Source of the DNA: Psilocybe cubensis
Lineage: Eukaryota
Length of the DNA: 64,000 nucleotides
Reading direction: 5' to 3'
Assembly: GCA_017499595.2 (NCBI GenBank)
Contig: CM039008.1
Location: 496,001 to 560,000 of the forward strand
The stretch's first letter is position 1. Each line of letters starts with the position of its first letter. This document shows, in pieces, positions 1 to 31,077 of this stretch. The notes beneath the pieces are model-generated. The model saw only the letters and a list, made by a program, of their open reading frames with translations. It was not told the origin of the DNA and ran no database searches. The position numbers and the translations under genes were made by a program.

Positions 1-39
1 TGGCCCTGGGCATTGGCGAACCATGGGGTGGCGGGCGTA

Positions 40-3800: not shown

Positions 3801-5689
3801 AAGGACATACCACAATGTCAATCAATTTTGTGGAAGAGATAACAAATGAAAACGGATGCGCATGCATCTTGTTCTCCTGGTTCAGTTCTCCGTTTCCAAC
3901 GCACCAAACATCTTTTCCTTGCATCTCGGGATAGCATCACGTCATGCTGTCACTGCTAGAGCAGATGCCGTCAATGTTCATGGAAGATTGGCAGAAATTG
4001 TTTGAGTGCGAACATACTTTGAATCGAGGGGACAGGGATGACATACCATGGCGCTATCGCTCAAATTGCATCTAGTGCGTCATTAACCACTGATTTACAT
4101 GTATAGATACGGGGAGTATATGAAATTACACAAGAGGTTGAGTGATTTTGACGAATATAAAATTTACAATGCACGCACTCATATATTTCTCAAATCCAAT
4201 GTGTTCGTTTGCAGATGCCGTTTTAACGCCATAGCCACTAATATACCTGTAAATATCGTACACCGTCAGTTTACAGACGGATAATGACTCGAGAGACCAC
4301 CAACAACTCACGAATGAATGACAACGCGAAATCACGACACAACCTCTCCTCCTCCCCCCATTCGCTCTAGCACTCGTTTCCAAACGTTTGCTTCGCTTGC
4401 ACGTACCCTTCATTGCACCCATCACCCCTAGCTCCGATCACGGCATGTGTCAGTCGAGATGTAGTGGAACAACTAGGTTGGATGAAGATGCGAGTTGGTA
4501 ATTGAATACATGGAGAATGAAATATACCCAACGGTGTTCTGTGCGGAAACGAGGTAAACGTCCGTATGGGGGTTGGTTTCTGGGTATACCATGATCTATT
4601 TCAGAGTAGTTGGGTCGCATCGAATGCACAGTGACGATGACATTGGAAAACGAAACGTACATAGGTGTCCTGTGATGATTTTCAATGAAAACATTGAATT
4701 TGGGTTAATCGGAAAAGATGGGTGTGGGTGTTGCACATAGTTAACATGCACCATAATCCTTAGCATGCACGATGAGTTTGGCAAAGATTTAGGATGGAAA
4801 AGTTGCGGGCAGGATAATGATACATGGATGCCGACATGCTCCCCATCCCCAAATTCGCCCGTTTCAACGATTCAAACGCTCGTTTCTCTCGGACCTGAAC
4901 ATCTTGACATCACGGAGTTTTATTCTCCGTACCTGTTCTGTAATGCTGCGATGGAAATTAGACTGGTGAGCATGGAAGATGTTGGAATTGAATGAAAATA
5001 CCGTGAATGCCCAGAGTGTAATTGCGCAGAGTCTAGCCTGGTTATCGTAAACGGGTTATGTTAATATGGCAACAGCTAGATCCTCCATGAATAGGCGATT
5101 CATCAAGTCCAGAGATGTGCAAAGAGGAAAGTTTGCAATGTTGAACAGCATCTAGAGCGAGTAATTCAAGGTTTACCACAGAAAAGCATCCATTCTTTAC
5201 AGATCAAAAATCCAGAGTTGAACGAGTCATTGAACAGAGGTAATTCCAGCAGGCATACATTCAGATGAGGACGATTCGAATCTCATATTTCGAAATCTAA
5301 TGAGCAGACGACGGCGCAGGTGAATGAAAGTCGAACCAAACATGTTGCTCAACCTCTCGCTTAGGTGGCGGACACACATTTCCCCCTTTGGACGGATATT
5401 CAACAGACATACGAATGCGGATACGAAAAGGTATAAAAGGAGGGTGGAGTTGACCTGGATTCCTCAGTTCGGTTCTCCCTCTCCTCCTGTTTTCCTCCTG
5501 CCTCGCCTCGCCTTGTCTGCCTACCCCGCCAGCCTTGACCACCTCGCTACGGTTGACAAAGTGAGTGCATGGGAGAGGCCAGCTTGACGTGGCAAACGTC
5601 AAGCGTCAGCAGCTGGTAAGTCATTTGTGACGCGCTTGTTGAAAAAACCGACATTTTCCAGGCAGTTGCGCGGTGAAGGATGTGTCCCT

Positions 5690-6025
5690 TGCTGAGAATG
5701 TCAGTATTCGCGACGTTTTTGTTGACCGAATTAATGCTTACCTGGTTTGCACAGCAATGACCCCGCCCCATGCTCTGAGAGAGGTGTTCGCGCTCCACGC
5801 GCTTAGAGGTGTTGTGGGCCGGACGCGCTGAGGATGTGGGTACCCGCTACGTGTTTGTTGAGAGAATTGCTGCTCACCTGGTTTGCATAGCAATAACAGG
5901 GGTGTCATGAACCCATACACTGAAGAGGTGCCCAGTCGGCCGGACCCGATGCGCTGAGGATATCAGTACGTGTGACACGTTTGTTGATATAACTACTACT
6001 CACCTAGTTTGCATAGCAACGTTCG
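5690..6025. repeat. Three degenerate ~130-bp tandem units, each with a minus-strand splice donor
   Basis: GCTGAGRAT at 5691, 5827 and 5953. CTYACCTRGTTTGCAYAGCAA at ~5737, 5873 and 5999; minus strand reads ...AG|GTRAG. Confidence 0.65.
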
Positions 6026-6425
6026 ACAGCTCCTACACGCTTAGAGAGTCGTTGTAGATGCAGCGTCCCCCCATTCCTATCCCTTTTCATGTCCGAGCAA
6101 TAACCGCCCCAAACCAAAGGAAAACCGCAAATGTAAGAAGTGCTTCGCATTGAAACTGGGAATCATTGCCTGGAATATGGTCGAGCAGTAGGCCGACAAT
6201 GCCCTGGTTGATCAGCGCTACACGATAAGACTCTAATTATCATTAATTTCTGAAGTGAAACAGAGAGTGCATACCATGGACACCTATGGCAGAAATGGAA
6301 CTCAGTACTGCTCTTTGAACCCGTTTTTGTGGGTGTTTTATCATATTGGAAAGTGTGTTTCCGAGTTCAGGACCTAAAAGCATGGGATGCATGCGTTCTA
6401 TTGCCGATATGAGACGACAATCGGA

Positions 6426-8291
6426 TTATACAAAGCCACAGTACGCACCATTCAGAGCCAAACATTTGAGTGTAGATCCCTTATCCATCGCAGAGAGAAT
6501 AAGAGAAGCGTCAATCAACCACTGTCGATGCAGAGGGTTTGTACAATTAGAAATCACTTCCGGAATATGATTGGTGAATTCGGCAGGTATCAGAAATCCT
6601 GAGCGTATCCGCACATGGATGTGGATGCAAATAATCAATTCAAGAATATCGTCTTGGAACATATCCCAATTTGACAGGGTCCCTCCCGGTTGCAGAAAAG
6701 CTACGAGTGAGCTAGCGCTCCAATTTAAGGAAGAATGGGTGGTCTGGACAAGAGACAGCATAACTGTAAGGTATGCTCGAGTTACATCGGAAGAGGTTTC
6801 AGTCTTGTCTAGGGAGGATAGAAGCTCCGTGATGTTGCGGGTCAAGACTCGTAATGGGTCTGCAATATACAAAGCCTCCTGCAACCTTGACGACATGGGT
6901 AGTCCCGCAATGGCACAGACTGGATCATCAAGTTTGAAGGTTCGCGCCAGTGAAAACAGACCAACGAGGACATCTGTCCTCAATTCGTCTGATGGAGGGT
7001 TTGAAACGAGCATGAGATGATATAAAGATGAGAATGTGTCGAAGATGCCCTTTGTCCATGTCCTACGTAGCTTGGTGGTGGACAAAAGGACATGATCGAG
7101 GTGGGTGTAAGAGCTGGTAACTCTCCGCGCCTTACGTCGGCGTTGGCGGGGAGTGAATACCAAGTGTCCAATTGCATCTGCCAGGAGAATGAGAGGAATA
7201 AAGACGCCAGGAATCTAATAAGAGATATGTTGATGTCCTTCATAGAATTCAAAGACCATCGCTTACAATTGGCAGCAAGCCAGATATCGGGGTATTAAAT
7301 GGGGAATTGGGATTGAGAAGCGGGCGAATGCTACATCCTAGGTAGAGGAGCATGGTGATGGCAATAAGCGTCGTCACAACTACCCCAATTCGCGGGTCGT
7401 CCTGAAACAATAAAATGACGAGGCCGCCGAAGAAGAGGTAAAAGGCAATGTGCAAGGTTATTGGCAGGGCATGTATAACAGCTCGTAGATGTCGCTGGTC
7501 GTCGCCGAAGAACCGTCGATGACGATTGCAGGCGTCGATTATAGGCAGTCCAGCTGATACAGGAATAAATTGGGATACCCACCCTTTCGCCAGGATTGTT
7601 CCAAAAGCACCCGTTAAGGCAAAGGTGAGGCTGACGAACCAGAGTCCATTCACCCATACCAAAGGTGATGAGGGTACAAAGGTTGTTGATAGTAGGGAAT
7701 TCTGACGAGTTTCCGACGACAAGGTTTGAATGAGGTCTCTGATCAAATTATTCGTGATAGCCTGAGGGTCTTGTTGGAGATCTTTTCGTGTCTTGATAAG
7801 AAAGGCAGTCAAAATGGCAGAAAACAGGCCCGCCTATAAATTGACGTCAGAAACAAAATTGTGGAACAAGCAAAACATACAAATATCAAGATGGTATCCA
7901 AGTCACAGTTCCATATTCTCATCAACTCTTCGCCTTTTGATTTGGTCAAGTCGAGGTACATCGACCAGACCTTTGCATCATCTGCTAGGTAGTCCGCGAA
8001 TGGGTTTCGGAGGTCTGCATTGGAGGTTGCCACGTATTCCCTAGCTGCCGTTTCAATGGATGCTCTCGATGGTGGCCGGTAGACTAATACGATTGTTGTT
8101 ATTGGTCTTTTTCAGGCGCATCTGAGGTAAAAAAACATACCCTTTGTGTCAGACAACCGTGATTCTGCCCTCTCCACGTCGCGGGGAAATGGAAAACGAT
8201 AAGCAAGCGCTGATAGAGTACTGGTCCCATTCCCTGATTGGATTCTCAGGCACCGTGCGACAATCTCCCAAAACGACGATTTCGCCTGCAT
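6426..8291 (-). CDS. DUF6535-domain membrane protein, multi-exon
   Basis: ORFs 7809-8033 (DDAKVWSMY...WNCDLDTILIF) and 7249-7812 (TAFLI...LQQDP...VWVNGLWFVSLTFAL...LAKGW) match the DUF6535 pattern. The gene continues in ORF 6426-7163. Start codon approximate. Confidence 0.75.
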
Positions 8292-8868
8292 GTGTTGTTC
8301 TTGAAGGTTTTCGCGTCTATGCCTGAGCAAGGTCGATAAATACGCCGTCCTCCTCGTTGCTTATAGTGAAAAAGTTAGACACTCGTGAGTCATACGCACC
8401 ATTGAATTTACGGTCGTGTGGCAATGCGAAGGGATTGGCACCCTGGCGGATTGGTTTTCCCAAATGATTTGCTGCCTCAAATAGAAATGCACTGGTTTAC
8501 ATACATGAATTGACAGCGATAAGTATGTATCGGCAGTTGACTTACCCTTCCATTGCTTCGAATCCCAAATAGACGCTCATTTGCATCATTCAATCATCTG
8601 GGAAAGTTAGTTTGGAAGGACCGAGGTTCGGATACGTCTCTCATCAGCAATACCGGGGCCAAGTAGGTAATGATCCGTAGTGATACGTAATTCTGTAGTG
8701 CCCATAGTAACGGTCCCATTTGGGTAACACACACTGATGTACCTGTAGCTTGGTACCAACGTGACATGGTACTCTGTAGTGATCTGTATTGTAACGCGAG
8801 TGCTGTGTAGCGGCGTGTAGCATGCTTACCATGGTCCATACCCCTCTGTATACAACTGACATACAAAT

Positions 8869-12742: not shown

Positions 12743-15102
12743 CTACATATTTACAACTTTGACACCACGGGACGGGGGGAAGATTTGAATCAAAGATGTT
12801 GTCGGAAAAGTTGGGAATGTATCACCGCGTTTCATACGAGTAACGGGATATTTATGTACAACGCAAATATCCTTGTCTATTGATCGTATCCTGAATATAA
12901 TCCCCATTGAATCGCCCTCAAGCGGTGTAACGAAGTCGTCCTTTTTTACAGGATGAATTGGAAACAACACTGATTTCGGTAATGTCAGTGTACGTCCCAG
13001 TAATGCTAGGTGGGCAGTATCGTCGGTAAGGCTGAGAAGTTCCATCGCCACTTGATGGTCGCCCTTGGATTTGTCTACGACTTTTAATCGTAATCCTTTC
13101 AGCTTATCGTATTTCGTATCTAGCCAGTGAGCGACGGTTGAGGGTAGTTCTGCGATTTCCACCGCCGAGTGTACAGGTATTGCTGAATACGGATTCCATG
13201 CAGGAGACAGAAAACTTGCTACTGTGGACGGCATTGGAGTTGCTCCACCAGAAGGCCCGGGGTCTTGAGCGGAATTTATATGTTCTCGGTTGCTTGAAAC
13301 AATGTCAGTAAGCACCTGACAGTCAACGAATCAAGTGAAACCACATACTGTATAATTAAATGTGATATTTTAATACGTTCCACCCTCTGGTTACGAGCTT
13401 CCAGCTCAACGTCTGCAAAGCCGTCGGGGGTAGTGCTTTTAACGATGCCATAGTACCCCTTGAATGTATTATTCCCGACAACGATGACACTCAAACCTAT
13501 ATAGACGTCGTTGTGGTCTCTTTCTCCAAGCTTTGACGAATGACGCTTTCGCGGGCGAAGAGTAGCATGGGCAGGGGGGACGTAGAATATGACTGTGTGG
13601 ATGGGCACAATGACCTGAAAAATGTGTTGAACACTACTGAGACAAAGAGAATGACAGTTCACCTACTTCGCGTTCGTGCTCTGGGGCGATAATACAAACA
13701 GATCTTCCATCAAAGTCTGACACCCATCCATGGAGATCTTTGTGATCCCCTTCAACGACTTCAACACTATCGCCTATCTGGAAAGCTGCACGTAGATCGT
13801 GTAGTGCAACTGCTTGTGTTATACCTTGGGAGGGGATGTGCACTTCCACCTCAGCGTCAGAAACACTCTTGACCGTTCCAAAAAGACCTAAGTATTCTCC
13901 ACCAATAATTTTGACTCGATCATATCGTTTCAGTCGAGTCATGGAGATGGCTTTCGAGGCTTGCGCTAAGGTCTCCGTCGTTACAAATGGACACTCGCGA
14001 AATTGCTCCAACTCGGACGATGTTGGGAGGACATTGGAAAGATATTTGAGATCGATGGCGTCGAAATCCGTGATAATAAATCCATCCTGGAATATCCTGT
14101 CGAGGTGCGATTTCTTGATGTTGTCCGGAGGTCTGGGGATAAGAACAACACTTTTCCGACCCTGGAATGTGAACACAAGGCCGGTAGCATTTGCGTAGGT
14201 CGTCCAAGCCTTACGCTTTCCAGCAACCTTGACCCACGATTGGTCTTCAGGGCGTGAGGGTGGGGGATGAGATAGGATCTCCATACATCTCTCCGAGGAT
14301 AGCCTAACTAAATGTGTCGGATTAAGCTCTCTAACGAGGCAGGCTAACGTATGCGCATGTTGCATTGATGGCGCCTCGACGTAGATTCTCCCAGGAATTG
14401 AGGATTGAGCGAAGACAGACCGGGCAAGGATGATGGGAAATGTAGGGTTCGTTGACATCTGCATAATTTTGAAAGCGACGGCCTCTTCGCGTCCAACCTA
14501 TCACTCGTAAGGTGATCAATAAATGCTGACTGAAGACTTATATTATTTTTGCGTACCTTGCAACCTATTTCATACATGATATCAGTCGCGGAAGGCATAT
14601 AATTATTATCACCAAGTCCTCCTGGTTGGGGATTGCCATATTTCTGTATAAGTTCTCGTGAACTAGATGGCTCTATATCATTGTCAGGACAAATTTTCAT
14701 GCGTGAAGGCAGAAGCATGGGCAACAAATCGCTCCATTCATCAGCGTTATCTGTATTTTGCATGGCATGATATAGCCGAGAGTGTGCAACACGTTCCTCA
14801 TCCTCAGAGAATTCATCGTTATCATTCACTGTATGTCAGAACCCATTAGCATCAGTACATATTGAGCAGAATATATGTAAATTATTGGAACATACGTAGT
14901 TGGCCCCCTTCATAATCAAGCTCTTCCGAACTTTCATCATCATCGGAAACCGCTGCTTCAATGTCTATGAAGGGATTAATGTCCTGATTTTTTGAGATCA
15001 TAATTAAATTTCCCTGAAGTTAGTGATTAGATGGAGGGTTGGATTAGTACACACTGTGCGGTTGCCTAGGCTGTCAAGTCGTCTGCGTTTATAACTAGAC
15101 AT
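12743..15102 (-). CDS. Spt5/NusG-like transcription elongation factor paralog (acidic N-terminus, NGN, several KOW motifs)
   Basis: Begins MSSYKRRRLD, then NPFIDIEAAVSDDDE (Spt5 N-terminal motif). NGN-like EIGCK...SVFAQSSIPGRIYVEA. KOW motifs YDRVKIIGGEYLGLFGTV, IGDSVEVVEGDHKDLHGWV and IGLSVIVVGNNTFKGYYGIVK...VELEA. A short GATP/SPAWNP remnant of the C-terminal repeat region. Confidence 0.8.
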
Positions 15103-15242
15103 TGTGGGTCTTAAAGACTGTTAATCGATGTTCATCTCACTTAATTTATCATCTTAACTTGTGATAATTTATTTTTAGATACTACACAACCTATTACTAT
15201 GATAAGACGCTATGATGAACGGAAAGAGAAAACATATGGTGA

Positions 15243-15443
15243 GAAACACGCTATTTCCGGAGCGATTCTTTAGGGTAGGTTTCCCGTCCTGAAGTCACGA
15301 GTTGGTTAAAAAAACGCCCCCTTACATCAGCCGCATCACCGTCACGGTGATGCGGCTGATGTAAGGGGGCGTTTTTTTAACCAACTCGTGACTTCAGGAC
15401 GGGAAACCTACCCTAAAGAATCGCTCCGGAAATAGCGTGTTTC
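15243..15443. repeat. Perfect 201-bp palindrome (100-bp arms, 1-nt spacer at 15343), with imperfect extension to 15207-15479
   Basis: 15243-15342 is the exact reverse complement of 15344-15443, checked base by base. Outer arms ACGCTATGATGAACGGAAAGAGAAAACA and ACGCTATGACGAACGGAAAGAAAAACA are diverged. Confidence 0.97.
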
Positions 15444-15768
15444 CAACTTGATTGTTTTTCTTTCCGTTCGTCATAGCGTAGTACCCCTCCCCATAGATTT
15501 AACATACATTCTAATAAAATAGACATAGACAATACTCTAGACACTCTATAATAGTTTTCGTTCAGTTAAAATTCATCTAGTTGAAAATTTGAGACACCAG
15601 AAAAAAACACACAAAAAAAAGTAAGTACCCAAAGAAATAGAATGCAGGGTGAGACGTTGAAGTTTTGTAGTGCAAGCCCAGAAGATTTCCCCCGTTGCCC
15701 GACTCCAAGCTGAAGAAATTCTGGCGTTTCCCTTCGAAACGCAGGTCGTTCGTCAGACTCTGGAAAAC

Positions 15769-18700
15769 ATGTTGCCAGAGTCGCACCCACTCCGCGTAGG
15801 TCTTAATTGGATTGCCATTTATGGTACTAATATCAAGTTTCTGTAGAGGATGGTGGATTTCCTCTGACGATATGAGGACTTCACCTTTTTGAATTACGAT
15901 GTTTCATCATCGAGCATGCGAGCGGCCATCAAGTATAGGCAAAGCTTGGCTGCCCTTCAGAACAGCATCGTAGAGACACCCTGCGTAACCTCGGCTACAT
16001 GGGAGCAGGCGGGTAGCTTATTTGCAGCATACCGTCTACTCGATCTCGTAGCGTTGTGGCCAGCAGCCTTTGGACCATCGTTGCCGGTAACCGTGCCCCT
16101 GAATGAAATACAGGCCAGCACAGGAACTAAGGAAATATTTTCACGGTTCAAGGTATGCGATCATGAAGTCACTCAATGTTAATTCTTAATTTTCAAACAA
16201 TTATTGTAGCTTGTAGATGACTTGAAGGACTGGCCGGCAATGCTCTGCTCTGCCAGGAAGCGCATCCTCAGAGCCGACTCTAAGTCGCACAGAAACATCA
16301 ACACCCCTTCTATCAGTGACACGCCGTCATCCGCTTTCACCCAGGGCGGGCCCTCGGAATCAACGCTATTACTCTGTCTGGCGCGTAACCACTTCAAGGG
16401 TGTTGTGGGGAAAATAATCGGGAATGTGTACTGCGCCTCGCTACACTACCAAATCTTGTCAGGAATGCGCGGTATGAAGGACGATGAACACGTTCTACCA
16501 GACATTCCAACGGACACGGCTACTCTTGCAAATCTCTAGTAAGTTTTCTTTCCTCTATTCATTGATACAATCTGCTCAACATACCCTAGTGCAAGCGGCC
16601 ATCCTGATGCTGCGTTGTTCCTCTCAGAGGTCACGCCATCTCATTTAAAAATTCCTCTGCATGTCGCCCTTTTCATATCCCCCATCCTTCTTTTTGTGAA
16701 TAAATCTTGGTATTCTAAGAAATGTGACCGGGAGCAGCTGCTTAAAGTAGGTGTATCCACATCCTCCCAGTTTAACTTGGATTAACGCACTCCTTTAGGC
16801 CTCAAAAGCGCTCGGTAATTGTCGCCCCCGTGTTCTGCGTGAAGTGGAGATGGAAATTTGGAAAATCATTGCAGCGCAAAATTGCGACATCCAGTCAGCC
16901 TTATATAAACTTGTTATCTCAGACTGCTGGATGGAATGCGAGCGGGTAATTGCACAAGATCCCGCGTTTCACTTTTTCATATGTGTGTTCTACGTACTGT
17001 AACAAAATAACAATTTAAACTAATAATTGGCCAGCGTCAACGAGCAGCGCCGAGGTTACAGCAAATTCTAACCTAGCAAGGCGCAGCACTGAACCACACG
17101 GTAAGTTATAAGCAAAGTCTGCGTCAATTACATGATTTAAATCCGTTTAAAACAGCTCAACTTCAGACCGTTTCCCATCATGGTGAAAAAACCACCTGTG
17201 AAGGGTCCGACGCAGACGCGGAGGGTGACGATGATCACGAAGTGGACACGACAGAAATGGTCAGCATGGGTCAACGGGAGAACGGGGACAATACGGTCCC
17301 TACCTCAAATATACAGCCTCCGGAAGACACGTCTTCAGTGGCTGGCAAGGATGTCAGCATGGGTCAACAGGAGAACGGGGACAATACGGTCCCTACCTCA
17401 GATATACAGCCTCCGGAAGACACATCTTCGGTGGCTGGCAAGGATGTGCCCACGGACGAGCAACCTGGTTTGCCGCGGAGTGATGATATTGGATCTGGTC
17501 TACTTCAGACTGAGAATACTGGGCCCTCATCTGCAGGGGATTGTGAGATGAACGTCGATCCGGAGCAAGCTGATGTCGACCATCAAATGGAGGATGGTCC
17601 ACATACCAATGGTCCAGAAAATTTGGGAGATGGCGGGGCTGGACAAGGAGCTGAAGGGTCTTCTGACGAGGCAAATCGTATGTCGGAAGTTCACGAGGGC
17701 GAAAAGCAGGGGCAAGACGGAGAACGACCCGACGAGGAGAACCGAATGTCAGAAGATGGTGAGGAGGAAAGGCCAGACGACAGTTCGTCGGACAATGAGA
17801 CCGAGAAGCAGGGGCAAGGGGATGTTCCACCAGTCCAGGAGGACAGAATGTCGGTCGATGGAGAGGGGGTAGGCCCAGAGCAAAACAATGATTCCTCAGA
17901 CATGGAGAGGAATACATTGGAAGACAGCCAAGGCGAAAAGGAGGGGGAGAACGCACCTCCTGCTCCTCTTATTTTGAGGATTCCTCCTGTTTCCCAGATA
18001 AACAGGAGCAAAAACACCACGGCTGACTCCTCTCAGAAAGGGAAAGGGAAGGGCCGGCAGGGCCTTTCCAAGCGGCCTCCCAAACGCAAGCCGACGCAGG
18101 CTACCGACACATTTGATTCGGACGACGACCTGTGTATTGATGTCGATCTGTACGACAGCAACACCACCCTTGATGTCGTCAGCACTCCGGAGAAGGTGTA
18201 TGGCACCAAAGTTTGGTCCACCTACAACGGTCGTGGCCAACTTAAAAGTTTCTGCGTTGTTGCCCATGTAAGTCATTCTCGATATTGATTTTTTCGTCAT
18301 TTATTTATTCTCCAAACAAGAGTCAAGCCGACGTGGATCGTGTTGAAAGGGTTCTGGAATTGGTCGAGAGTGACTACGTCGATGGAGTTCCATTGCACAT
18401 AGCACGTCCCGAAGAATCATGTTTTGCGGTATTCGACCGCAGCACCACGAAATCCATGTATCTGATGGAGTCTTTCTCTGAAAGGAACGTCGTCCTTATG
18501 TCTCCTTCTCAAGAGGAGTCTATTTCAACTTGCTCCGACGAGTTCTACAGCCAGGTACGTCGCCATATGGGTGATATGACGAGCACCAGGTCAATCCAAG
18601 GTGTGTTTCCTCTTCGATGTTTTGATTTTTCTTTCTGCGTCTCATGCTAATGGCCGTAACAGATATGTCGACCATGTCGTCTAACCCCATCGAGAGGATT

Positions 18701-20332
18701 AAGCGTGGGTCCCTCTCTCAGGTCATGGAAGCAGCGAGGATGAAAGGCAAAAGAGGAAAGATCCTCAATGCCCTCGACATCCCTTTACCTCATGCAGGCG
18801 CTCACTCTTTTGACTTGAGTACTGAGGCGGCTGCTCTTCGGGCTACATCTGGTAGCTGGAAGTATAGTACCCCCGTCCCATTTGGTGATATGTCATGGGG
18901 ACTCGTAGCTACAGAGGGGGCATTTTCAGATATCCATATCGATGCCAATGGTTTCTGTTCCTTCATCCAACCTCTTCATGGACTGAAGCTGTGGATTATC
19001 ATGTATCCCAGACGGTTGGATGTTGACCTTTCTTCTGACCGCCGTGTATTTCTGGGAGACAAGCTGGATTACGGGGAAACGCACCACCAAGACTGGATTT
19101 ACGAGGCGATTGTTCTCGATAACCAGTCAGAACTGTATGTGATTTTTGAATGTCCTACCCATTTGATTATATTGACGCTACTTTGAAAAACAGCTTCATG
19201 AGACCGAATACTCTACATATGGCGTATTCTATCTCCTCAGTGGTTTGCCGTGGCGGACATTTTTACTCCTCCACTTCCTTCGAAGAAACCCTGACAGGAA
19301 TCATTCACTGTTTTACCGCTGGATACAGGGCAACGAATACGAATCATTCAACGTCCCGATTTTTCCTGCAGCAAACCATACATTGGTTCTACAAGGTTTT
19401 GGTTGAAGGTGACAGCGACCCAGAAGGTATGAGGTTTTTTACCGTTTCCTACAAGATATCTGATTCTTTTCTTCTATTTTCTCTCAGATTTTTATGAAAT
19501 GTACCATGTCCCATTCTACAGTACGCAGTCCGGATACTCGAGCTTGATAGCTCTGTGCGTGTGCATGATCTTGGCAAATGCGCTCGACTACGAGACCTAT
19601 CGAAATCCCGATCAGATGTTCTCCACCAAGACTTCGGCACAGTTAGACGCATGGATGCGGTGGGATACCAACAGCCTGAGCGACGAAGAGCGCAAGGCGT
19701 GCATCTTTGCCCGTGGCGAAGCCTTGGCTATTCTAGAGTGGCTATGTCATCGCACGAAGTCCATCCACTACATGATTGAGACGGACAAAAACAAGGATGC
19801 ACAAAATATCATGGCGACAGAAAAGTTCCATGAAATGATACTTTGCCGCTATGCCCGTATGATTCTAGCCTACGACGCAGAAGCCAAACATAACAACATT
19901 GGTGGTGCCCCTTGCTGTACCGACACCAGTTTGCTTTTTGTCCAGCTTCAGGGCGTCTGCAGCGGAGAATTGAACAAGGTTATATGTCGCAGTATCGACC
20001 AGCTTCCTCGTTCCTCGGTCCCAAAGATGCTCAAGTTACCCGTAATCACTCTCATTGACTGTGATGCCTGTGCGGATTCCTCAACGCAATTGAGTAGGTG
20101 GACCAGTGTCTGCCTTTGGATATTCACTAACCACGTCACAAACTAGGAACTCCCAAGGAGATTCTGGAACTTGGTACGAGTGTGAGGGATAAACTGTATC
20201 TGGATGGCATGAAAGTCAAGCTGGAGAGCACAAATCCGAGTACGTGTGTTCGATTATGCCTTTACGTCGCAAATGCTTATCTCTTCATCAGAATCAGAGT
20301 CTGTTCCGCCTTCTAAACGACGGCGACTTTGA
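15769..20332 (+). CDS. Large multi-exon JmjC-like Fe(II)/2-oxoglutarate dioxygenase; 5' end uncertain, possibly disrupted
   Basis: WGLVATEGAFSDIHIDANG...GLKLW (HxD plus Lys) in ORF 18644-19186, and FMRPNTLHMAY...GGHFY (distal His) in ORF 19150-19497. Upstream acidic low-complexity exon 17242-18270. Ends PPSKRRRL*. In-frame TGA at 15865 in the predicted second exon. The N-terminal exons could be a separate gene. Confidence 0.7.
17260..17447 (+). repeat. 93-bp (31-aa) coding tandem duplication
   Basis: VSMGQxENGDNTVPTSxIQPPEDTSSVAGKD twice, starting at 17260 and 17353. Confidence 0.95.
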
Positions 20333-22652
20333 TATTGTACAACACATTGACACACATCTTGATTTACATACATGCCATGTTTTATTTAGTACTGAAAGGC
20401 GTGTATGTCCTGTAACATAATGACGATTGTTTTATTATCTGTAGTTGTGTGCTGCTCGTATCGCCAGACCAATACGCAAATTCTCGCTGGGATGAAAGCT
20501 TCTGGCTTTACTGTAACTGCTGTGCGTTTGAATTTATCATCAAGGTCAATGAAATCAACTAACTTACGTTTGTTGATGCTTCTTCCACCCACTTCAAAAA
20601 ATGTGTTAGTGTCTTTGTTCTGGTGCGTATATACAGTAAAGCTCTTCCGAAGCCCTCCTTGGATTGTACTACGGATTGGTTGAATACTAACCCATGTGAA
20701 ATTTGTTTGTATTAACGGAGACATAATCAGATAACATTTATAGACCCACTGCACGTTACTGAACATTACATTATCAGTTTTTTTTTCGTATCTTCGCTTT
20801 TGTATGAGTCGTTGTTTCAACATGGGAAAGGGCAAGGGCAAGAGAACTCAGGAAATCTGTGTGCGTTGTCCTCGATGCAACAAGCCATTCGCTAAGCATG
20901 CAGATGTCCAAAATCACATCAATCAACCAAAATCGGCATGTCGTTTTCAATATGAGAACGTTATGCATTTTCAGTCCAATCGTTCAAGCTCTACATCTAG
21001 ATCAGCAACCCCCGTATCTCGAGACCCTTCTCCCGAAATTGGTAATTTTATGGAAGTGGACTATATCGACAATTTTCTTGGCGCGTCATCAGAGATGGAA
21101 GATGACCCACCCCCCAAGGCATCAAAATACAACTATCCGTACGTGAAGGAGGATTATAACGGGGCTGGAAGAGCATTTGGAACAGGCCTTACATTCATGG
21201 ATCAGCTCAAACAGGATCAATTCGAACCCCAGCGGGCGGAAAATTTGTACTATCCTTTTGCCTCGAAAGATGAATGGGAGCTCTCCCTGTTCCTACTTCG
21301 CTCTGACATGAGCGTAGGAATGCTGAATGATTTTTTGAAACTTGAACTGGTAATTGAGCGTACATTCCCATCATTATTTATTTCAGCTGAGTCGATCCCG
21401 TATAGATAAAAAAACTCAACTTGTCCTACAAGTCGGCAAAAGATCTACGCAACCGGGCAGAGATCCTTCCCTCTGGTCCGCAGTGGAAGAGTCAAACGAT
21501 CATACCAGAAATACCAAGCAAAAATCAGCTAACGCTTTTTTACCGCGATGGATTGGAATGTATCAAGGCGCTTCTCATCAGTCCCTTGCTCCAAGATAGC
21601 ATGCACTTTAGCCCATTCAAGCTCTTCGACAAGTGCAACGAGATGATGCGGGTATACACTGAGTGGTTTAGCGGTGACATTGCGCATTTTATGCAGGTTA
21701 GTAGCAATGCCTTTGTCCAAGTTTGACGACAGTATAACAAGGTTCCCAAGGACCAGCTCCCAAAAGGAGCAACACTTGTACCTCCTATTATTTCCACGGA
21801 TAAAACCAACATTTCCAACATGACCGGAGGCCGTGTCGCCTACCCTGGCCTTATCAGCATTGCCAACATAATGATGAACGTTAGAAACAAATCGTCAAAT
21901 CATTTATTCCTTCTTTTTGTTCTTCTTCCCATACCAAAGTTTCTTCATCGCTCCAAAGCTGTGAATGGGATGATGGCAGCACGGCTATATCACCAGTGCA
22001 TGGACATTGCTCTAGAATCGGTCAAACAAACTGCGAGGGTGGGAACCACCATGGCAGATGCATTGGGGAATAATCGTTTCTGCTTTACACCGCTTGCTGC
22101 CCTTATCGTTGATACTCCAGAATCTGCTCTGGCGGCTTGCGTCGCAGGATCCACATCCTCTGTGACGTTGGCACAATACGAGACGTTTGGGGATTCCTTT
22201 CGCCACCCTTCCCGAACTGCAGATCATACAATCAACACCATCATGGCCATCAACAATGTTAAGCCCCCTAATCATCTCGAACCATATCTAAAAGAAAGCA
22301 AAAAGCACCGTCTCAATGGGGTTCACCTACCGTTTTGGAGAGATTGGCCCTTGTCTGATCCTTCTGCATTCCTTACACCTGAACCCCTTCATCACTGGCA
22401 CAAGATGTTCTGGGATCATGATGCAAAATGGTGCATTGCTGCAGTCGGAGGTTCCGAATTGGATTTTCGATTTTCGATTTTACAGCACCGCACTGGTTTC
22501 CGACACTTCAAGGAAGGGATTTCTTCCTTGAAACAAGTGACCGGTAGGGAACATCGGGACGTTCAGCGATACATTGTTGCTCTCATTGCAGACACAGTCA
22601 GTACACCCTTTATCTTAGCCATCCGGTCTCTGATGGACTTTCGGTATCTCGC

Positions 22653-23102
22653 TGTCAGGGCAACACTATAATCAGTGTGACAAGGCCACCAACAAAGATT
22701 AAGCAAGAGAGAGAAAGAGAGAGCAGAGGGAGAGTAAGAGAGCAAAGAGAGAATAAGAGAGTGAGAGAGATTCAATGGTTCTAAGAGATCACACCAATGA
22801 TAGTGGATATCCTAAGAGATTGAAGCTGAAGCTACAGCTACCTACAAGTCCAGTATTTATACTCTACAGCTATTCTAGAATATTCCCTACATTACATCAT
22901 AAAGGAAGGTTAAAGAATAAAAGTGACATCATATAGAAAAAGGATGAGTAAGACTAGGAATCATATAGAATTTACTAGAAAGAAGTGGAGCAAGAAGGCT
23001 GTGATGAAAGAAATAAACTATCTAATCAGATAATTGATAAGATAATGAAAGAATAAGATAATTCTGTGAAGATAAAGAGGGGAAACTGGAGAAACCCTGA
23101 CA
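22653..23102 (-). repeat. 3' LTR
   Basis: Identical by eye to 28615-29064. Confidence 0.97.
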
Positions 23103-26100
23103 TCACCCCCTCTCTAAGGCACATTTTCCACAATGTGCACATGGATGGGTTAGTTTAGAGGGTTTAAGAAGAGGAGGAGGTTCAGTAAAGTTAATAATAG
23201 GAGTGAAAGAAAGTCTATCAAAGGTCACAGCAGAAATCCTTCTAGGTGCTGAAGGATGTTTGGCATGGAAGTCCTTGATAGCCTTAGAAGCATTTTTCAA
23301 ATGCTCTGCAGGCTCCCAAGTGCATTCTTCATTAGGATAGTTCTTCCACTTGACCAAATATTGAAGTTTGTTTCTAAAAAGTCTGCTGTCCTTGATAAAT
23401 TCAACTTCCCACTCAGGATTTTCTCCTTGAATGACAGGAGGTGGTCTAGAAGGAGGCTTTCTTCCTACAATATCTGGGTGATAAGGTAGAAGTTTAACCA
23501 CATTGAACACTGGATGGATTTTCATGGTAGATGGCAGCTTAAGCTCATAGGCATTAGGGCTAATAACTTTGGTAATTTTGTAAGGCCCATATCTTTTATC
23601 ATCCAATTTCTTGGAGGGCCTATCAGTTTTGAGGTCCTTGCCATCTAACCATACCAAATCCCCAACTTTGTACTGAGTTGGAGTACCTCTGTGTCTATTA
23701 TAGAATTTAGCCATATCATCAGCAGCTTTTCTAAGTGCAGACTCTGCTTCTTTCCTGGCTTCTTCCATATTTTTCACAAAGGTATCCACAGTGTCCATTT
23801 TACTATCTCTAAGGGGTTCAGTGCCCATTCTGGGATGTCTGCCATTATTGAGCATGAATGGTGTCTGCCTGGTTGAAGCCTGAACTCTATTGTTATAAGA
23901 GAATTCAGCTAGAGCTAACCATTCAACCCAATCATCTTGTCTATGGTTTATAAAGAGTCTAAGATACTGCTCAATTTCTTGGTTAACTCTTTCAGTCTGA
24001 CCATCAGTTTGGGGATGGTAGGCTGTAGATGAGGCTGTCTGGATACCAAGTATTGAGTTGAGTTCTTTCATAAACCTTGAGACAAACTGTGGACCTCTAT
24101 CACACAGAATTTTAATGGGTAAGCCATGGTGTTTCCAGACATAATCTCTGTATAGTCTGGCTGTCCCTTCAGAAGTGACTTCATCTGTAGTAGGGATAAT
24201 GTGGATCATTTTACTAAGTCTATCCACAACCACCATAATGGCATTATACCCTTGACATTCTGGTAACCCCATAATAAAGTCCACAGAGATGCATTGCCAG
24301 ACATCAGAGGGAATCTCAGTAGGAATTAAAAGGCCAAGAGGTTTGGCTGGAAAGGTTTTGGTTCTGTTGCATCTATCACAACCTCTGGTATAGGCTGCAA
24401 TAAAATGTGACATTCCTGGCCACCAATAATTCCTAGAGACTAGCTCAATTGTCTTCCATTTCCCTGGATGTCCAGCAATGAAGGCATCATGGTGCAGTTC
24501 CACAATCTTTCTTCTAAGATCTTTGTCTTTGGGAACATACACCTTCCCCCTGTAGAGAATAAGGCCTTGTTCTTCTGACCATTCCTGTCCTTCAATCTTC
24601 TTGGTAGAAGATTTCTTGAGCTCCTGAACTGCCTTGACCACCTTTTCATCCATCTCCTTAGCTTCTCTAATCTTCTTAAGAAGATCATTTTCTGCACCAG
24701 TAATGGTAGCATGACCCTGCTTGAGAGCCTGGATTTTAAAGTAGGAAGGTTTGAGGAGAACTACATTTTGGTTATCATTTTCTCCCTTTTTATGATCTGG
24801 TCTCCTAGACAAAGCATCTGGCTTAAGAGATCTTTTACCAGGCCTATGATGAAGAGTAAAATCAAATCTGGACAGGAAGAGTGACCATCTGGCTTGCCTT
24901 CTGCTGAGCTTTTGGGCAACCATAAAGTACTCTAAGTTTTTGTGGTCTGTCCAAATCTCAAAGGAATGTTGGGTTCCTTCAAGATAATGTCTCCATTCAT
25001 CTAGTGCTCTGATAATAGCCAGCATCTCTTTGTCATGGATCTCATAATTCCTTTCTACTTCAGATAGACTCTTAGACATAAAGGCTACAGGATGCCATTT
25101 CCCATCTGATCCTTCCTGAGATAAAACAGCCCCAGTAGCATAATCTGAACTGTCTGCTTCAACTTTATATGGCTTGTTATCATCAGGGAAAATCAAGACA
25201 GGTGAAGAAGTGACTTTCTTCTTTAACTGGTCAAAGGCTTCCTGCTGTCTAAGACTCCATCTCCAGACTGTTCCTTTCTTTGTCAATTCATGAAGGGGCT
25301 TAGCAATGTCTGCAAAATCCTCTATGAACCTTCTATAAAAATTAACAAATCCCAAGAATGATTGGACATCCTTGACATTTTCAGGTTCAGGCCATTTAGA
25401 AACTCCCTCTACCTTGACAGGATCCATCTCAATCCTGCCTTGTGAAATGATTAGTCCAAGATATTCAATCTTTTCCTTTTCAAATTCACATTTCTCTGCT
25501 TTAAGGTAGAGTTTGTTCTGTTCTAGGATTTGCAGAACTTGCTTGACTACCTCTCTATGATGATCAAGAGTCTCAGTGAAAATTAAAATGTCATCCATGT
25601 AGACAATGACAACATTTCCATCAATGAGCTCAATAAAGATATCATTCATCATAGTTTGGAAGGTAGCAGGACTATTGGTTAAACCAAAGAACATGACCAA
25701 TGGTTCAAACAGCCCTCTATTGGTTCTAAAGGCTGCTTTCCATTCATCTCCCTTTTTGATTCTGACATTGTTAAATCCCCACCTAACATCAAGTTTGGTG
25801 AAGTATTTGGCTTTGCTGAGTTTGGTGATGATGTCAGAAATCAATGGAAGGGGGTAGGAGTTCTTGATGGTCATTTCATTCAGTTTCCTATAGTCCTGGA
25901 CAAGCCTAAGAGATCCATCCTTCTTCTTGACAAAGAATACAGGGGAGGCCATAGGTGACTTGGAGGGTCTAATCCTGCCAGACTTCAGATTTTCCTCTAA
26001 AAAGGCATCAAGTTCCTTTTGTTCATTGGGAGAAAGAGGATAAATCTTGGATCTGTAAGGTTCAGAACCAGGTTTCAGCTCAATAGCATGATCCCAAGGC

Positions 26101-26984
26101 TTTCTGTCTGGTAGCCTATCAAAAGATTCCTTTGAAAAAACACCTTTAAACTGATGATAGTGCTTAGGAACAGTTTCTTCAAAGGTTTTCTTAGGGGAAT
26201 CAGCTTGCTGATGAGACTCTTCTGCTAATCTTTGAGACATAGTAGAAGTAGCATTAATAGACTGCTTCTGAGGATGAAGGTATGAGATAAAAATTCTATC
26301 CTCAGGCTCAATCTCAGAATCAGAAGAATCTTCAATAGAATCATCTTCTTCTTCATCAAATTGAGGGAGTTTCCTCCTTTTGACTGCAGCTATTCTCTGC
26401 CTCTTTCTTCTGGCTCTTTTGGCTTCCATTTGGCAGTCAGAGGGACATCTAATAAACTGGACATCCCCTGTCTTCCAATCAACATCTGGATTATGGTGCC
26501 AAAGCCAAGTATGTCCAATGATAGCAGATTTGTCTCCCAAGTCACAAACAGCAAAGGTGGCCCTTTCTGTATGGTTCTTGTGTACCATAATTAAGTCTAC
26601 TTCCTCATGGATAGAGCCACTCTTGTTGAGAGTACCATCAACATTATAGACTGGAATGGCTCTAGGAAGTTTCCTTGTGTTGAGATTATGATACTTCACA
26701 AAACCAGAATGCAGAAAGAGGCCAGTAGCTCCAGAATCAAGTAAAGCATCAACAGATAACCTTTTCTCTGTGTCCATTGTCTTTAAGATGACAGACAAAT
26801 GGGTAGAGGTTTTAGGATTATGGTTGAGGATGTAGATCTTTTCAGGGAAGGTAGAAAGAGAGGAAGAAGAAGACATGATTTCTGCACCAGAATCTGAAGA
26901 CTGAGGATCAAGTCTGTCAATTTCATTTTCTAGTACATTAAATCTATTCCATTGGGACATGTCTTTCACCAATGGTGCTTCTAA
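23103..26984 (-). CDS. pol: Pol polyprotein: protease, RT, RNase H, integrase, chromodomain (reached by a -1 frameshift from gag)
   Basis: LLDSGA protease; YMDD RT; ADSSD...NYEIHDKEMLAI RNase H; HH-CC zinc finger, SVDFI, CDRG and GQTER integrase with GPY motif; chromodomain WEVEFI...YLVKWKNY...TWEP. Stop codon abuts the 3' LTR. Confidence 0.97.
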   Translation of the reverse strand, partial: LEAPLVKDMSQWNRFNVLENEIDRLDPQSSDSGAEIMSSSSSLSTFPEKIYILNHNPKTSTHLSVILKTMDTEKRLSVDALLDSGATGLFLHSGFVKYHNLNTRKLPRAIPVYNVDGTLNKSGSIHEEVDLIMVHKNHTERATFAVCDLGDKSAIIGHTWLWHHNPDVDWKTGDVQFIRCPSDCQMEAKRARRKRQRIAAVKRRKLPQFDEEEDDSIEDSSDSEIEPEDRIFISYLHPQKQSINATSTMSQRLAEESHQQADSPKKTFEETVPKHYHQFKGVFSKESFDRLPDRKPWDHAIELKPGSEPYRSKIYPLSPNEQKELDAFLEENLKSGRIRPSKSPMASPVFFVKKKDGSLRLVQDYRKLNEMTIKNSYPLPLISDIITKLSKAKYFTKLDVRWGFNNVRIKKGDEWKAAFRTNRGLFEPLVMFFGLTNSPATFQTMMNDIFIELIDGNVVIVYMDDILIFTETLDHHREVVKQVLQILEQNKLYLKAEKCEFEKEKIEYLGLIISQGRIEMDPVKVEGVSKWPEPENVKDVQSFLGFVNFYRRFIEDFADIAKPLHELTKKGTVWRWSLRQQEAFDQLKKKVTSSPVLIFPDDNKPYKVEADSSDYATGAVLSQEGSDGKWHPVAFMSKSLSEVERNYEIHDKEMLAIIRALDEWRHYLEGTQHSFEIWTDHKNLEYFMVAQKLSRRQARWSLFLSRFDFTLHHRPGKRSLKPDALSRRPDHKKGENDNQNVVLLKPSYFKIQALKQGHATITGAENDLLKKIREAKEMDEKVVKAVQELKKSSTKKIEGQEWSEEQGLILYRGKVYVPKDKDLRRKIVELHHDAFIAGHPGKWKTIELVSRNYWWPGMSHFIAAYTRGCDRCNRTKTFPAKPLGLLIPTEIPSDVWQCISVDFIMGLPECQGYNAIMVVVDRLSKMIHIIPTTDEVTSEGTARLYRDYVWKHHGLPIKILCDRGPQFVSRFMKELNSILGIQTASSTAYHPQTDGQTERVNQEIEQYLRLFINHRQDDWVEWLALAEFSYNNRVQASTRQTPFMLNNGRHPRMGTEPLRDSKMDTVDTFVKNMEEARKEAESALRKAADDMAKFYNRHRGTPTQYKVGDLVWLDGKDLKTDRPSKKLDDKRYGPYKITKVISPNAYELKLPSTMKIHPVFNVVKLLPYHPDIVGRKPPSRPPPVIQGENPEWEVEFIKDSRLFRNKLQYLVKWKNYPNEECTWEPAEHLKNASKAIKDFHAKHPSAPRRISAVTFDRLSFTPIINFTEPPPLLKPSKLTHPCAHCGKCALERG

Positions 26985-28108
26985 AAATTTTTCTTTTCCT
27001 CATCTTTCTGCTCCTTGCCTTCCAAGATTAATTTCCCAAAGTAGTCAGCCAGTTCTTCATGGGTCATAGCATTGATGTTAACTGATGACCTGCAGTTTAC
27101 AGCCTTATGACCAGGCTTTCTGCACTTGAAGCAAACAATTGGCCTAACTGACTTCCATCCAGAGTCAACCTCCATGGGAACTACATCTGGTTGCTTTGCC
27201 TGAGCACCAAAGGTCCTTGAGCTGCTGTTGGAAAAGACTGGAGGATTTGGAGTAGGCTTAGGAACAGCCTTGGGAGTTGGGGCTTTAAGGAAGGGAGAAG
27301 AAGAGGAGGAGGAAAGAGACTTGGTAAAGGCCTCACTCTGTCTCCACTGCCTATCTAGCCTAGTACTCCATTTAATCCATCCATCCAAGGTTTTGGGCAT
27401 GTCAGGAACATAGTAGACTGCATTCCTAAGATTTTCATTAAGCCCAGCCTTGAATTGGTCTACCAAAGCAGCATCATTATACCCAGTATCTGAGATCAGA
27501 GCCCTGAAGCTAGCAACATACTCATCAGCAGTCTGTCTGCCTTGCTTGAGCATGTGCATTTTATGCTTAGCTGTGTTGGAGGGGTCTGGATCTGCAAACA
27601 CTTCCCTAAATTCATAAACAAAGTCAGCCCAAAGACCTTCTTGGGACTGAGCATTGTCTATTACTTTAGTCTTCTCATATGCCCACTTCCCAGCAGTACC
27701 TCCTTTCATATGAGATAGAGCACAAATAACTTTCTGAAAGTCATCTGTAATCCCTTTCCCATAGAAATATAATTTAAGCTGACTGAGGAAGTTTTCTGCC
27801 TTCTCCATAGAACCATCAAATGGATCTGGAGGTGAGACTTTAATGGCAGAGTGTGAACAGGAAGGGGCAACATGAGGGGTAGGGAAAGAGTGAATATCTA
27901 GAGCAGCAGGTGGTGGTGGTGGTGGTGGTGGTGGTGGTGGTGGTGGTGATGGTGACTGACTGACTGGTTGCTGAGGGTGTGGTGGAGTGGATAATGACTG
28001 CTGCTGCTGTCTAAGAAAATTTAACTCTTGGGTAAGGAGCTGGACCTGATGCATGAGCTCTTCCACAGAAGGAGTGGTGGGAGGCAATTGGGAGGGGTCC
28101 ATGTCCAT
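26981..28108 (-). CDS. gag: Gag protein
   Basis: 375 aa with a poly-Pro tract, PDPFDG, LKQG...ADEYVASF capsid motif, VPMEVD and CFKCRKPGHKAVNC zinc knuckle. Confidence 0.95.
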   Translation of the reverse strand: MDMDPSQLPPTTPSVEELMHQVQLLTQELNFLRQQQQSLSTPPHPQQPVSQSPSPPPPPPPPPPPPPAALDIHSFPTPHVAPSCSHSAIKVSPPDPFDGSMEKAENFLSQLKLYFYGKGITDDFQKVICALSHMKGGTAGKWAYEKTKVIDNAQSQEGLWADFVYEFREVFADPDPSNTAKHKMHMLKQGRQTADEYVASFRALISDTGYNDAALVDQFKAGLNENLRNAVYYVPDMPKTLDGWIKWSTRLDRQWRQSEAFTKSLSSSSSSPFLKAPTPKAVPKPTPNPPVFSNSSSRTFGAQAKQPDVVPMEVDSGWKSVRPIVCFKCRKPGHKAVNCRSSVNINAMTHEELADYFGKLILEGKEQKDEEKKNF

Positions 28109-28601
28109 GGGTAGGGGTAGGTAGGCTCTCTGATGTGTGTGTGGGAGAAGCTATCTACTGAAAGTGCCCTTGAAACTATACTAAGTATTCTAAAAAAAAA
28201 TATCTATCTACTGGATACCCAGTTGTCACACCACTCAGGGCTCTAAACCTAGGATCACAGGGTTACTGGATATTTCCTAGACCACCAAAAACAGAACACT
28301 AGTAGGACTGTGTCTGCCCCAACAGTTGGTATCCCTATCTACTAAGTTCACACACAGCACACAACAGAGAGTAGGAAAGATGATGAGCCAAAGGTCTTGA
28401 GGAAAGGTCTTGAGGAAAGGTTTTGAGGAGGATGTTGAAGATTGGTGGAGATGTAGAGATTGGTAAGAAGATTGGTGAAGAGGTTGATGAAGAGGTTGGT
28501 GGATTGGAAGTGGAGGAAGAAGGTTGAGGTGATGGTGTTGAAGAGGTTGAAGAGGTGAAGAGTTTGGTGTTGAAAGAGAGATGGTGGAGTTGTCTTGAGA
28601 G

Positions 28602-28612
28602 AGCTTCAATCT
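28602..28612 (-). promoter_or_regulatory. Primer-binding site complementary to the element's own predicted transcript 5' end
   Basis: Minus-strand AGATTGAAGCT lies 2 nt after the 5' LTR. It is complementary to minus-strand AGCTTCAATCT at 28789-28779, which is 26 nt downstream of TATAAATA (28823-28816). Confidence 0.75.
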
Positions 28613-28614
28613 TC

Positions 28615-29064
28615 TGTCAGGGCAACACTATAATCAGTGTGACAAGGCCACCAACAAAGATTAAGCAAGAGAGAGAAAGAGAGAGCAGAGGGAGAGTAAG
28701 AGAGCAAAGAGAGAATAAGAGAGTGAGAGAGATTCAATGGTTCTAAGAGATCACACCAATGATAGTGGATATCCTAAGAGATTGAAGCTGAAGCTACAGC
28801 TACCTACAAGTCCAGTATTTATACTCTACAGCTATTCTAGAATATTCCCTACATTACATCATAAAGGAAGGTTAAAGAATAAAAGTGACATCATATAGAA
28901 AAAGGATGAGTAAGACTAGGAATCATATAGAATTTACTAGAAAGAAGTGGAGCAAGAAGGCTGTGATGAAAGAAATAAACTATCTAATCAGATAATTGAT
29001 AAGATAATGAAAGAATAAGATAATTCTGTGAAGATAAAGAGGGGAAACTGGAGAAACCCTGACA
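28615..29064 (-). repeat. 5' LTR
   Basis: 450 bp; TATA box at 28816-28823 on the minus strand. Confidence 0.97.
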
Positions 29065-30572: not shown

Positions 30573-31077
30573 TTGCCACTCAAATTATCACCCAACACGC
30601 CGGCCTCGTTGTACACAAAGACGACTCGGATCAATATCAACAGCCGCTTCTCACCAGTCCCGCTTTCTCACACTGTATCATCGTCACCTACTGCATATCC
30701 CTCCATCCATCTCATCTCTGCAGAATCAAGTCGTTCTCGCTCATCTTCCGCTCACCACCGCCCAAACTCCAAAGGATTCTTCCCAGAGTGCCTCTTCCTC
30801 TAAACAAAAATTCGCCTCCAGTCTTGTTGGTCCGTCCTGTCCTCAATTAGCGCCCATCTTGCCGGAGATACTCACTTTATTTTTTCAATTCCATTGCAGA
30901 TTAAGCTGTCAGCACCTTATCTGAGATCTGGCGCCCTCAAGACATTCCCTCCCTATTTCTACCCACTGAAGTCCTTTGAGGATTGAGGACATCTGGAAAC
31001 ATACTGCAGACAGCACTATGTTATCTCGAAGCCATTCGTCCCAAGGTTCCCAAAATTTGCAAGAGGAAAGCATTGGC
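30573..31077 (+). pseudogene. Degraded, internally deleted duplicate of the adjacent cyclin gene
   Basis: 30673-30952 matches 31109-31387, including the intron. 30969-31077 matches 31617-31726. TAA replaces CAA just after the splice acceptor. Confidence 0.8.

Follow-up and report, generated by a model that had tools for sequence, protein, structure and literature searches.

A perfect palindrome of 201 bp lies between two divergent genes within a PlavakaB transposon of Psilocybe cubensis. It is probably, if not securely, to be regarded as an ordinary hairpin, both self-correcting and fragile, that is derived from a duplicated regulatory module within a very young element. Its symmetry would then reflect youth and passive homogenisation, with no dedicated maintenance.

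The palindrome and its host element

The window is the whole stretch of DNA that was analysed (64 kb, C11:496001-560000). The features under discussion are itemized below by their position in the window.

15243–15443, no strand: perfect palindrome with arms of 100 bp and a 1-nt centre (C at 15343), established by arm comparison, folding and the centre states of 14 copies
15207–15242, no strand: outer left arm, a 21-bp block (15207–15227) with one CpG-type mismatch followed by a 15-bp scrambled patch (15228–15242)
15444–15479, no strand: outer right arm, a scrambled patch (15444–15458) followed by a 21-bp block (15459–15479)
15350–15397, + strand: conserved arm core of ~48 bp, with a mirror copy at 15289–15336; it occurs unpaired at C11:190183-190258 and in a second family of giant repeats
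15325–15361, no strand: inner core CATCAG..CTGATG, sharing 7 bp with the left end of the element and containing a recurrent breakpoint (15330/15356); recognized post hoc
8642–33317, + strand: PlavakaB DNA transposon with ends CATCAG..CTGATG and a CT target duplication, present in 14 genomic copies
12743–15001, − strand: Spt5-like gene with NGN and KOW domains, the first ATG at 15001 being 342 bp from the palindrome centre; 3′ limit approximate
15621–20240, + strand: large JmjC-like gene, with homology to P0002 from 15652; start codon not fixed
21406–30524, + strand: Plavaka transposase gene (PF18759, DUF6830), interrupted here by a retroelement
22653–29064, − strand: nested Ty3-type LTR retrotransposon with identical LTRs, a 5-bp target duplication and CpG o/e of 0.00

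The arms (15243–15342 and 15344–15443) pair at every one of their 100 positions on either side of the central C, and each contains 8 CpG dinucleotides, just as the sequence-only reading had described. This is the sole perfect palindrome in the window with arms longer than 12 bp, the next-longest arm being 12 bp, and the chance expectation for perfect arms of 100 bp is ~1e-54. Folded as DNA it has a calculated energy of −163.6 kcal/mol (z = −33), matched by none of 100 shuffled sequences. The divergence previously noted in the outer ~35 bp, with its CpG change, is also present; there are 9 mismatches over 36 bp (15207–15242 with 15444–15479), including a CpG-type mismatch at 15216/15470. They are unevenly spread, eight in one 15-bp patch and a single difference in the outermost 21 bp, and so may reflect as few as two or three mutational events. 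The CpG at 15469–15470 in the outer right arm is mutated in two copies, and no nearby template for the scrambled patches was found beyond matches of 7–8 bp. The outer remnants are equidistant from the centre on the two sides, and are thus what is left of an earlier repeat, imperfect but in register with the palindrome. AG is found at both outer ends of the palindrome; inspected as a candidate target duplication, it extends to 2 bp only. The CpG decay reported for other duplications in the element is seen, CpG-type changes making up 3 of 4 differences in a 93-bp tandem pair, 7 of 27 in a 219-bp pair, and 4 of 8 and 2 of 17 elsewhere.

In the available text of the paper that describes it (PMC12730594), PlavakaB is defined by a Plavaka transposase, CATCA..TGATG ends and a target site duplication of 2–3 bp. 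The host element has all three features, and is a PlavakaB DNA transposon like those of the Agaricomycotina. Its transposase matches PF18759 with E values of 1e-64 and 1e-16. The left CATCA end is present in all 14 copies, and the right TGATG end and a 2-bp target duplication in 13 of them (one duplication being counted across two separated pieces); the right end of the remaining copy is missing from the stretch that was fetched. The main text of the same paper mentions neither an internal palindrome nor Spt5 cargo, its sole use of ‘palindrom’ referring to the borders of TET genes. Without the nested retroelement the PlavakaB element is 18,259 bp in length, and the palindrome is located 37% of the way along it. 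The retroelement contains no CpG at all over 24001–28000 (o/e 0.00), while the host transposon has a ratio near 0.9 and is decaying at its CpGs; the LTR has about 20 further matches in the genome. The PlavakaB element interrupts one of the tandem units of a repeated host segment (window 1–8641 and 33318 onward; C11:438k–500k), of which the other units are empty sites. Outside the element, an array of seven 41-bp repeats at a spacing of 90–142 bp occupies window 46–772. Within it, a cyclin-like cargo gene (30680–32209) is preceded by decayed partial duplicates of its own 5′ part.

The palindrome is placed between the divergent Spt5-like (−) and JmjC-like (+) genes, both of which lie within 1 kb. 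The JmjC-like gene begins recognizably ~280–310 bp from the centre, and its intron at 15621–15670 was placed by eye from the homologue. The JmjC identity is a lead, with Atlas hits of 0.87–0.93 at a recognition below threshold; a Pfam scan of the gene gave no hit, and a PDB sequence search with the exon gave no match. No resolvase or Rep family was detected among 40 ORFs of the window scanned against Pfam, in which short exons are only partly covered.

The genome (46.6 Mb in 21 contigs) contains 14 copies of the palindrome region with unique flanks, and the palindrome is present in nine of these. Short reads from two other samples carrying the same species label (X16 and X17, both runs from one study) cover all 30 bins across the region. 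Together these rule out an artefact of assembly, which the sequence-only reading had allowed as a possible source of the fold-back. At the centre the depth falls to ~30% of that of the flanks (~157 compared with 500–570 in X16, and ~155 compared with 450–500 in X17). The reads include a form shorter by 6 bp (30 and 6 reads for its two placements in X16, and 16 and 12 in X17), a 175-bp deletion (10 reads in X16 and 11 in X17), and further one-arm deletions and duplications. The change of C15343 to G is found in 25/95 and 24/76 reads, where reads inside the arms may be placed in either orientation; 38 and 70 reads lie wholly within the arms and are ambiguous in this way. The two samples also contain a diverged fragment corresponding to window ~15411–15655, at approximately single-copy depth and preceded by tandem repeats of a 9-bp word of the arm, which was not found in the present assembly. 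Two contigs, X10 and X11, are near-identical to the PlavakaB family and broken at the palindrome, and therefore provide no outgroup.

Variation among the copies

The copies are labelled W (that of the window) and A to M. Their eight centre states are the following, written as arm length/centre base/arm length where the centre is a single nucleotide.

Copies W and A: 100/C/100
Copies D, E and M: 97/G/97
Copies F, H and I: 97/C/97, F with one CpG change at 15436
Copy G: 88/C/88
Copies J and K: asymmetric loss of 27 bp, leaving 77-bp arms and a 20-nt spacer
Copies C, B and L: asymmetric losses of 114, 128 and 175 bp, respectively

Nine copies therefore retain a 1-nt centre with arms of at least 88 bp, two are spaced and three have lost the palindrome. 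There are four kinds of asymmetric deletion in five copies. Five deletions, each removing at least 18 bp compared with the 97-bp form, are concentrated in the 1% of the element that the palindrome occupies. One-armed copies are found at C6:3593k and C3:4053k. The palindrome is thus not stably kept, contrary to the suggestion that it is actively maintained; the 1-nt-spacer form has been lost in 5 of the 14 copies, almost wholly in three. Its absence from other copies, which had been named as an outcome that would count against that suggestion, is accordingly found in part.

A tree was constructed with the palindrome masked and, there being no outgroup, the root assumed to lie among the long-branched copies. 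It contains at least eight changes of the centre. The 100-bp arms are confined to the clade (A,B,W), which has a support of 98 when CpG sites are removed, and 76 and 97 on neighbouring branches with all sites. Given the assumed root, the 100-bp form would therefore be derived from the 97-bp form by a gain of 6 bp that kept the symmetry. Its sequence combines the beginning of the C form with the final part of the G form, as would be expected of the product of an out-of-register template switch. On the tree, copies with G and copies with C at the centre are interspersed (D with G, F and H with C, E and M with G, I with C), which requires at least two flips, located between I and the pair E and M, and between D and the pair F and H; several inner branches here have support near 50. 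Transversions are rare elsewhere in the element, where they make up 22 alleles at 346 sites. In the assembly the spacer is thus present in both orientations with the arms unchanged, three times as G and three times as C, and the reads contain both letters; as reads can be placed either way within the arms, the orientation of the flips is that of the assembly.

Copies J and K share one asymmetric deletion, and are located at different sites with different target duplications. They would thus have transposed after losing the 1-nt centre, possibly in trans, and this form is therefore not needed for mobilization. Copies C, G and L share a mirror-equivalent breakpoint (15330/15356) located just inside CATCAG, accounting for three of the five deletions. 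The probability of three shared breakpoints by chance is ~0.003–0.05, depending on the range assumed, and the coincidence is not predicted by plain slippage.

The family is very young, with a divergence of <0.5%. Over ~18.26 kb the copies differ from that of the window by 8 (the nearest) to 84 substitutions, and five substitutions are private to the window copy; CpG transitions constitute 218 of the variant alleles at the 346 sites. The number of changes expected in the 200 bp of the arms of the window copy is just 0.05, or 0.08 counting CpGs, so that the perfection of these arms despite 8 CpGs each, which had been taken as a sign of maintenance, carries no weight. Across all 14 copies the inner arms have one variable site where 4.9 are expected (P = 0.044), and there are three variable sites in the outer 72 bp. 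The deficit is borderline, and could also result from polishing with short reads or lower methylation. Were the outer events two or three in number, the scrambled patch being taken as one event, the probability that none would fall within the inner 100 bp is 0.07 or 0.02, respectively. CpG changes are not raised at the palindrome across the copies.

The arms are probably homogenised as a by-product of their structure. The earlier proposal that they are either homogenised or selected is favoured in its first part, by the deficit of variable sites and by the inversion of the centre between close copies. Between copies the centre varies in the manner described, and no new substitution common to both arms was seen within any of the 14 copies.

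We propose that a cis-regulatory module became inversely duplicated in the intergenic region between the Spt5-like and JmjC-like genes. The resulting long and nearly spacerless palindrome would fold into hairpins or cruciforms. Switching of the polymerase template between arms could then copy one arm onto the other and invert the centre, giving the G/C flip and the 6-bp gain, while slippage, or cleavage of the hairpin followed by end joining, could delete the centre or a whole arm. One physical property would thus both keep the arms alike and destroy them. Template switching, cruciform cleavage and a promoter role are what we infer from the pattern of variation and the location.

The first of these has been described in yeast. 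In the available text of PMC8604942 and PMC13100816, intermolecular template switching at quasi-palindromes (the Ripley model) makes the arms identical and inverts the spacer with the arms unchanged; events recur at one site, upstream of genes, and expansion of inverted repeats at promoters is frequent. The yeast arms are ~7–25 bp in length, whereas those in Psilocybe are 88–100 bp with a 1-nt centre, and the Psilocybe palindrome differs further in residing in a mobile element, of which 14 near-contemporary copies record the events. The fragility corresponds to what is known of long palindromes, where, in the available text of PMC7999016, long arms of high identity with very little spacer promote hairpins, breaks and deletions, and asymmetric central deletions leave a spaced and more stable repeat, as in copies J, K and B. 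Unlike those cases, nine of the 14 Psilocybe copies keep the 1-nt form, which is the least stable, and one clade has gained symmetry. The copies, <0.5% apart, constitute a natural time series in which flips, deletions and one symmetric gain have accumulated much faster than point mutations. How template-switch repair is weighed against deletion through hairpins thus becomes measurable in a basidiomycete. Each intact copy is a likely fragile site.

The arm module and selection for symmetry

The arm core is found in a second giant repeat, where its score is 47; of the 1,584 window-strands of 1 kb that were compared, the unrelated ones score no more than 33. There it is unpaired, and lies in the same orientation ~870 bp upstream of a homologous JmjC-like gene. 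The arm is therefore most simply explained as a cis-module, and a putative promoter, of which inverted duplicates arose twice, in one case adjacent and in the other far away. The distant duplication is found in two of seven copies of the other repeat, which have a second segment of 482 bp, 95.6% identical, inverted and 26 kb away in front of a WD40 gene; the remaining five have one copy of the motif only.

The other giant repeat has at least seven near-identical copies (C12:1679k-1732k and C2:597k-653k, with others on C1, C7, C9, C10 and at C12:1371k), extends over >50 kb where followed, and carries WD40, CSTF2-hinge, kinase and ABC-transporter-like cargo. Two of the copies contain the JmjC-like homologue together with the 482-bp inverted duplication. 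Where the repeat was followed, no transposase was identified and its ends were not found. The possibility that the arms are the ends of a nested 26-kb element in this sister region was rejected, as in most of the seven copies the identity of the segment continues past the motif in both directions, over 9.8 kb, and the segment is therefore no element end.

A single arm of 77 bp with 90% identity is located among host genes at C11:190183, and both palindrome arms share every difference from it. This stretch (L037:5183-5258) has ATG on both sides and lies in a small inverted repeat, which is itself flanked by repeated host genes. An inserted foldback element or MITE is not indicated, since outside the family the searches, whose counts are lower bounds, returned one single arm of 77 bp and no independent copy of the palindrome with other flanks. 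The motif is also not a splice site, as the intron would be too short at 37 nt and the single-arm copy lacks GT. It was not found in the viral contigs searched. A palindrome of 214 bp and 84% identity in a decayed copy on C8 (L039) has no sequence relationship to that of the window, and is situated amid nested insertions.

It is possible, although we regard it as doubtful, that the symmetry itself is selected. The palindrome would then be a bidirectional promoter or enhancer whose two mirror modules drive the Spt5-like and JmjC-like genes, and copies without an arm would be dead ends. The symmetric bidirectional promoter of the sequence-only reading is favoured by the central position between the divergent genes, close to the start of each, and by conservation of the arm core. 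The two 482-bp segments of the other repeat face outward to the WD40 and JmjC-like genes, copies of the motif are alike within a family and unlike between families, and in yeast the expansion of an inverted repeat raised expression 4-fold at GRE2, in the available text of PMC13100816. Loss of an arm is confined to three isolated tips of the tree, but this position is also expected for rare recent events. Against the proposal, J and K were apparently mobilized, possibly in trans, with their shared asymmetric deletion, and only one copy of the motif was seen in five of the seven copies of the other repeat.

Selection for symmetry is thus unproven. The equal-length diverged outer arms suggest that the palindrome is older than the burst of copies, and an old palindrome would not survive neutrally at the observed rate of loss (five of 14 copies within ~0.1–0.5% divergence). 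The element lineage may therefore have been under some selection, and the presence of the 1-nt form on inner branches despite this rate leaves room for it. One-armed, spaced and perfect copies coexist in one genome, where the effect of symmetry on the expression of flanking genes is directly comparable.

Palindromes at other Plavaka loci and the remaining explanations

Short palindromes (score ≥12, spacer ≤12) are present at 7 of 20 other Plavaka loci of the genome and 10 of 49 metagenome loci, compared with 3 of 24 control loci. Their density is 25 in 509 kb at Plavaka loci compared with 4 in 239 kb in the controls (P = 0.023; none in 60 shuffles), although many of the controls are repeat-rich and they are not random samples of the genome. 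The test is generous, as some of the loci are related to one another and two of the 11 matches in the same genome seem to belong to the LTRs of a nested element. None of these palindromes has arms longer than 41 bp. Two Plavaka families of 72% identity share a perfect palindrome of 25 bp (L105:5149-5173 and L107:5270-5294) with the centre base flipped; it is located ~30 bp inward from a probable end of the element. A complete PlavakaB of 16.6 kb with 67% transposase identity (L128) has no internal inverted repeat and no such palindrome. An obligatory resolution site is therefore unlikely, which tells against the replication or hairpin-resolution role suggested earlier.

The most elaborate explanation, which we judge improbable, is a symmetric control centre that renews itself. 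The Plavaka transposase, or a partner, would cut the end-like core, and with every transposition the repair of hairpins would flip and extend the arms and make them perfect again. The mirror modules would drive the Spt5-like and JmjC-like genes in step, and the short palindromes of other Plavaka families would be smaller versions. Its enzymatic part taken as a reading in itself, in which the core mimics the element ends and is nicked or cut so that hairpin intermediates regenerate, flip, extend and trim the palindrome at an element-driven, resolution-like site, appears quite improbable. The core does read CATCAG-CCG-CATCAC..GTGATG-CGG-CTGATG, with a 7-bp match to the left end, and the end-like 7-mer occurs seven times in the element, both strands and the end itself being counted. 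Yet the match is short and post hoc, and the breakpoint shared by C, G and L, although adjacent, lies inside the end-like motif and not at its edge. The short palindromes near transposases and the flipped 25-bp palindrome would be in keeping with such cutting, but the enrichment has non-random controls, the complete relative is without an inverted repeat, 38 of 49 metagenome loci have no palindrome at a score of 12, and the ORFs scanned include no resolvase or Rep family. Renewal of the palindrome by the element's own transposase would, if real, be a function new to cut-and-paste transposases, but the basis for it is thin.

Hairpin telomeres and concatemer-junction resolution sites with flip-flop forms occur in parvoviruses, poxviruses and phage N15. 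The Psilocybe palindrome resembles them in its odd length and in having two inverted forms of the centre. It differs in being internal, with a centre of variable length (eight states) that is often lost, and in the lack of a resolvase in the ORFs scanned and of a palindrome in its close full-length relative.

A single recent fold-back might have created the inner 97–100 bp just before the burst, with no homogenisation since, such that the variation would be plain deletion or assembly error. The low divergence of the family is compatible with this, as are the outer mismatches if these were only two events (P = 0.07) and the G/C flips, which the reads leave unconfirmed. It is nevertheless a very improbable account, as symmetry remained perfect when the youngest clade gained 6 bp and the variable arm sites are too few; moreover the copies are resolved by private SNPs and unique target duplications, which would argue for accurate long reads. 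A source of hairpin RNA feeding silencing or self-regulation is the least credible, for while a read-through transcript should fold into a 100-bp stem (calculated for DNA) and the available text of PMC4728375 proposes such a function for palindromes in Sirevirus LTRs, read-through is least expected between two divergent gene starts, all Rfam matches are far below gathering scores, as for any long hairpin, and CpG changes are not elevated. The Sirevirus palindromes are similarly fast-evolving and in a transposon regulatory region; they differ in being several and short, in a retrotransposon LTR and with siRNA evidence, the Psilocybe palindrome being known from sequence (PMC4728375).

Among the sequences searched there was no intact diverged sister with the Spt5/JmjC region, the relatives of 83–87% identity covering the 3′ half only. 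The Spt5/JmjC cargo is present in none of the 49 metagenome loci, and protein searches returned only two matches for each. These loci are short-read contigs that would break at a long palindrome, so that absences from them weigh little. No description of an internal Plavaka palindrome was found in the literature searched, which included few subscription titles. Two metagenome loci have inverted repeats with arms of 36 bp (L121:4639-4727, where the contig ends) and 30 bp (L155:2661-2727). Upstream of another Plavaka transposase are two imperfect palindromes of ~70 bp with the same centre (L092:4427-4493 and 7224-7296), and a long array of short hairpin units (L092:7540-9090).
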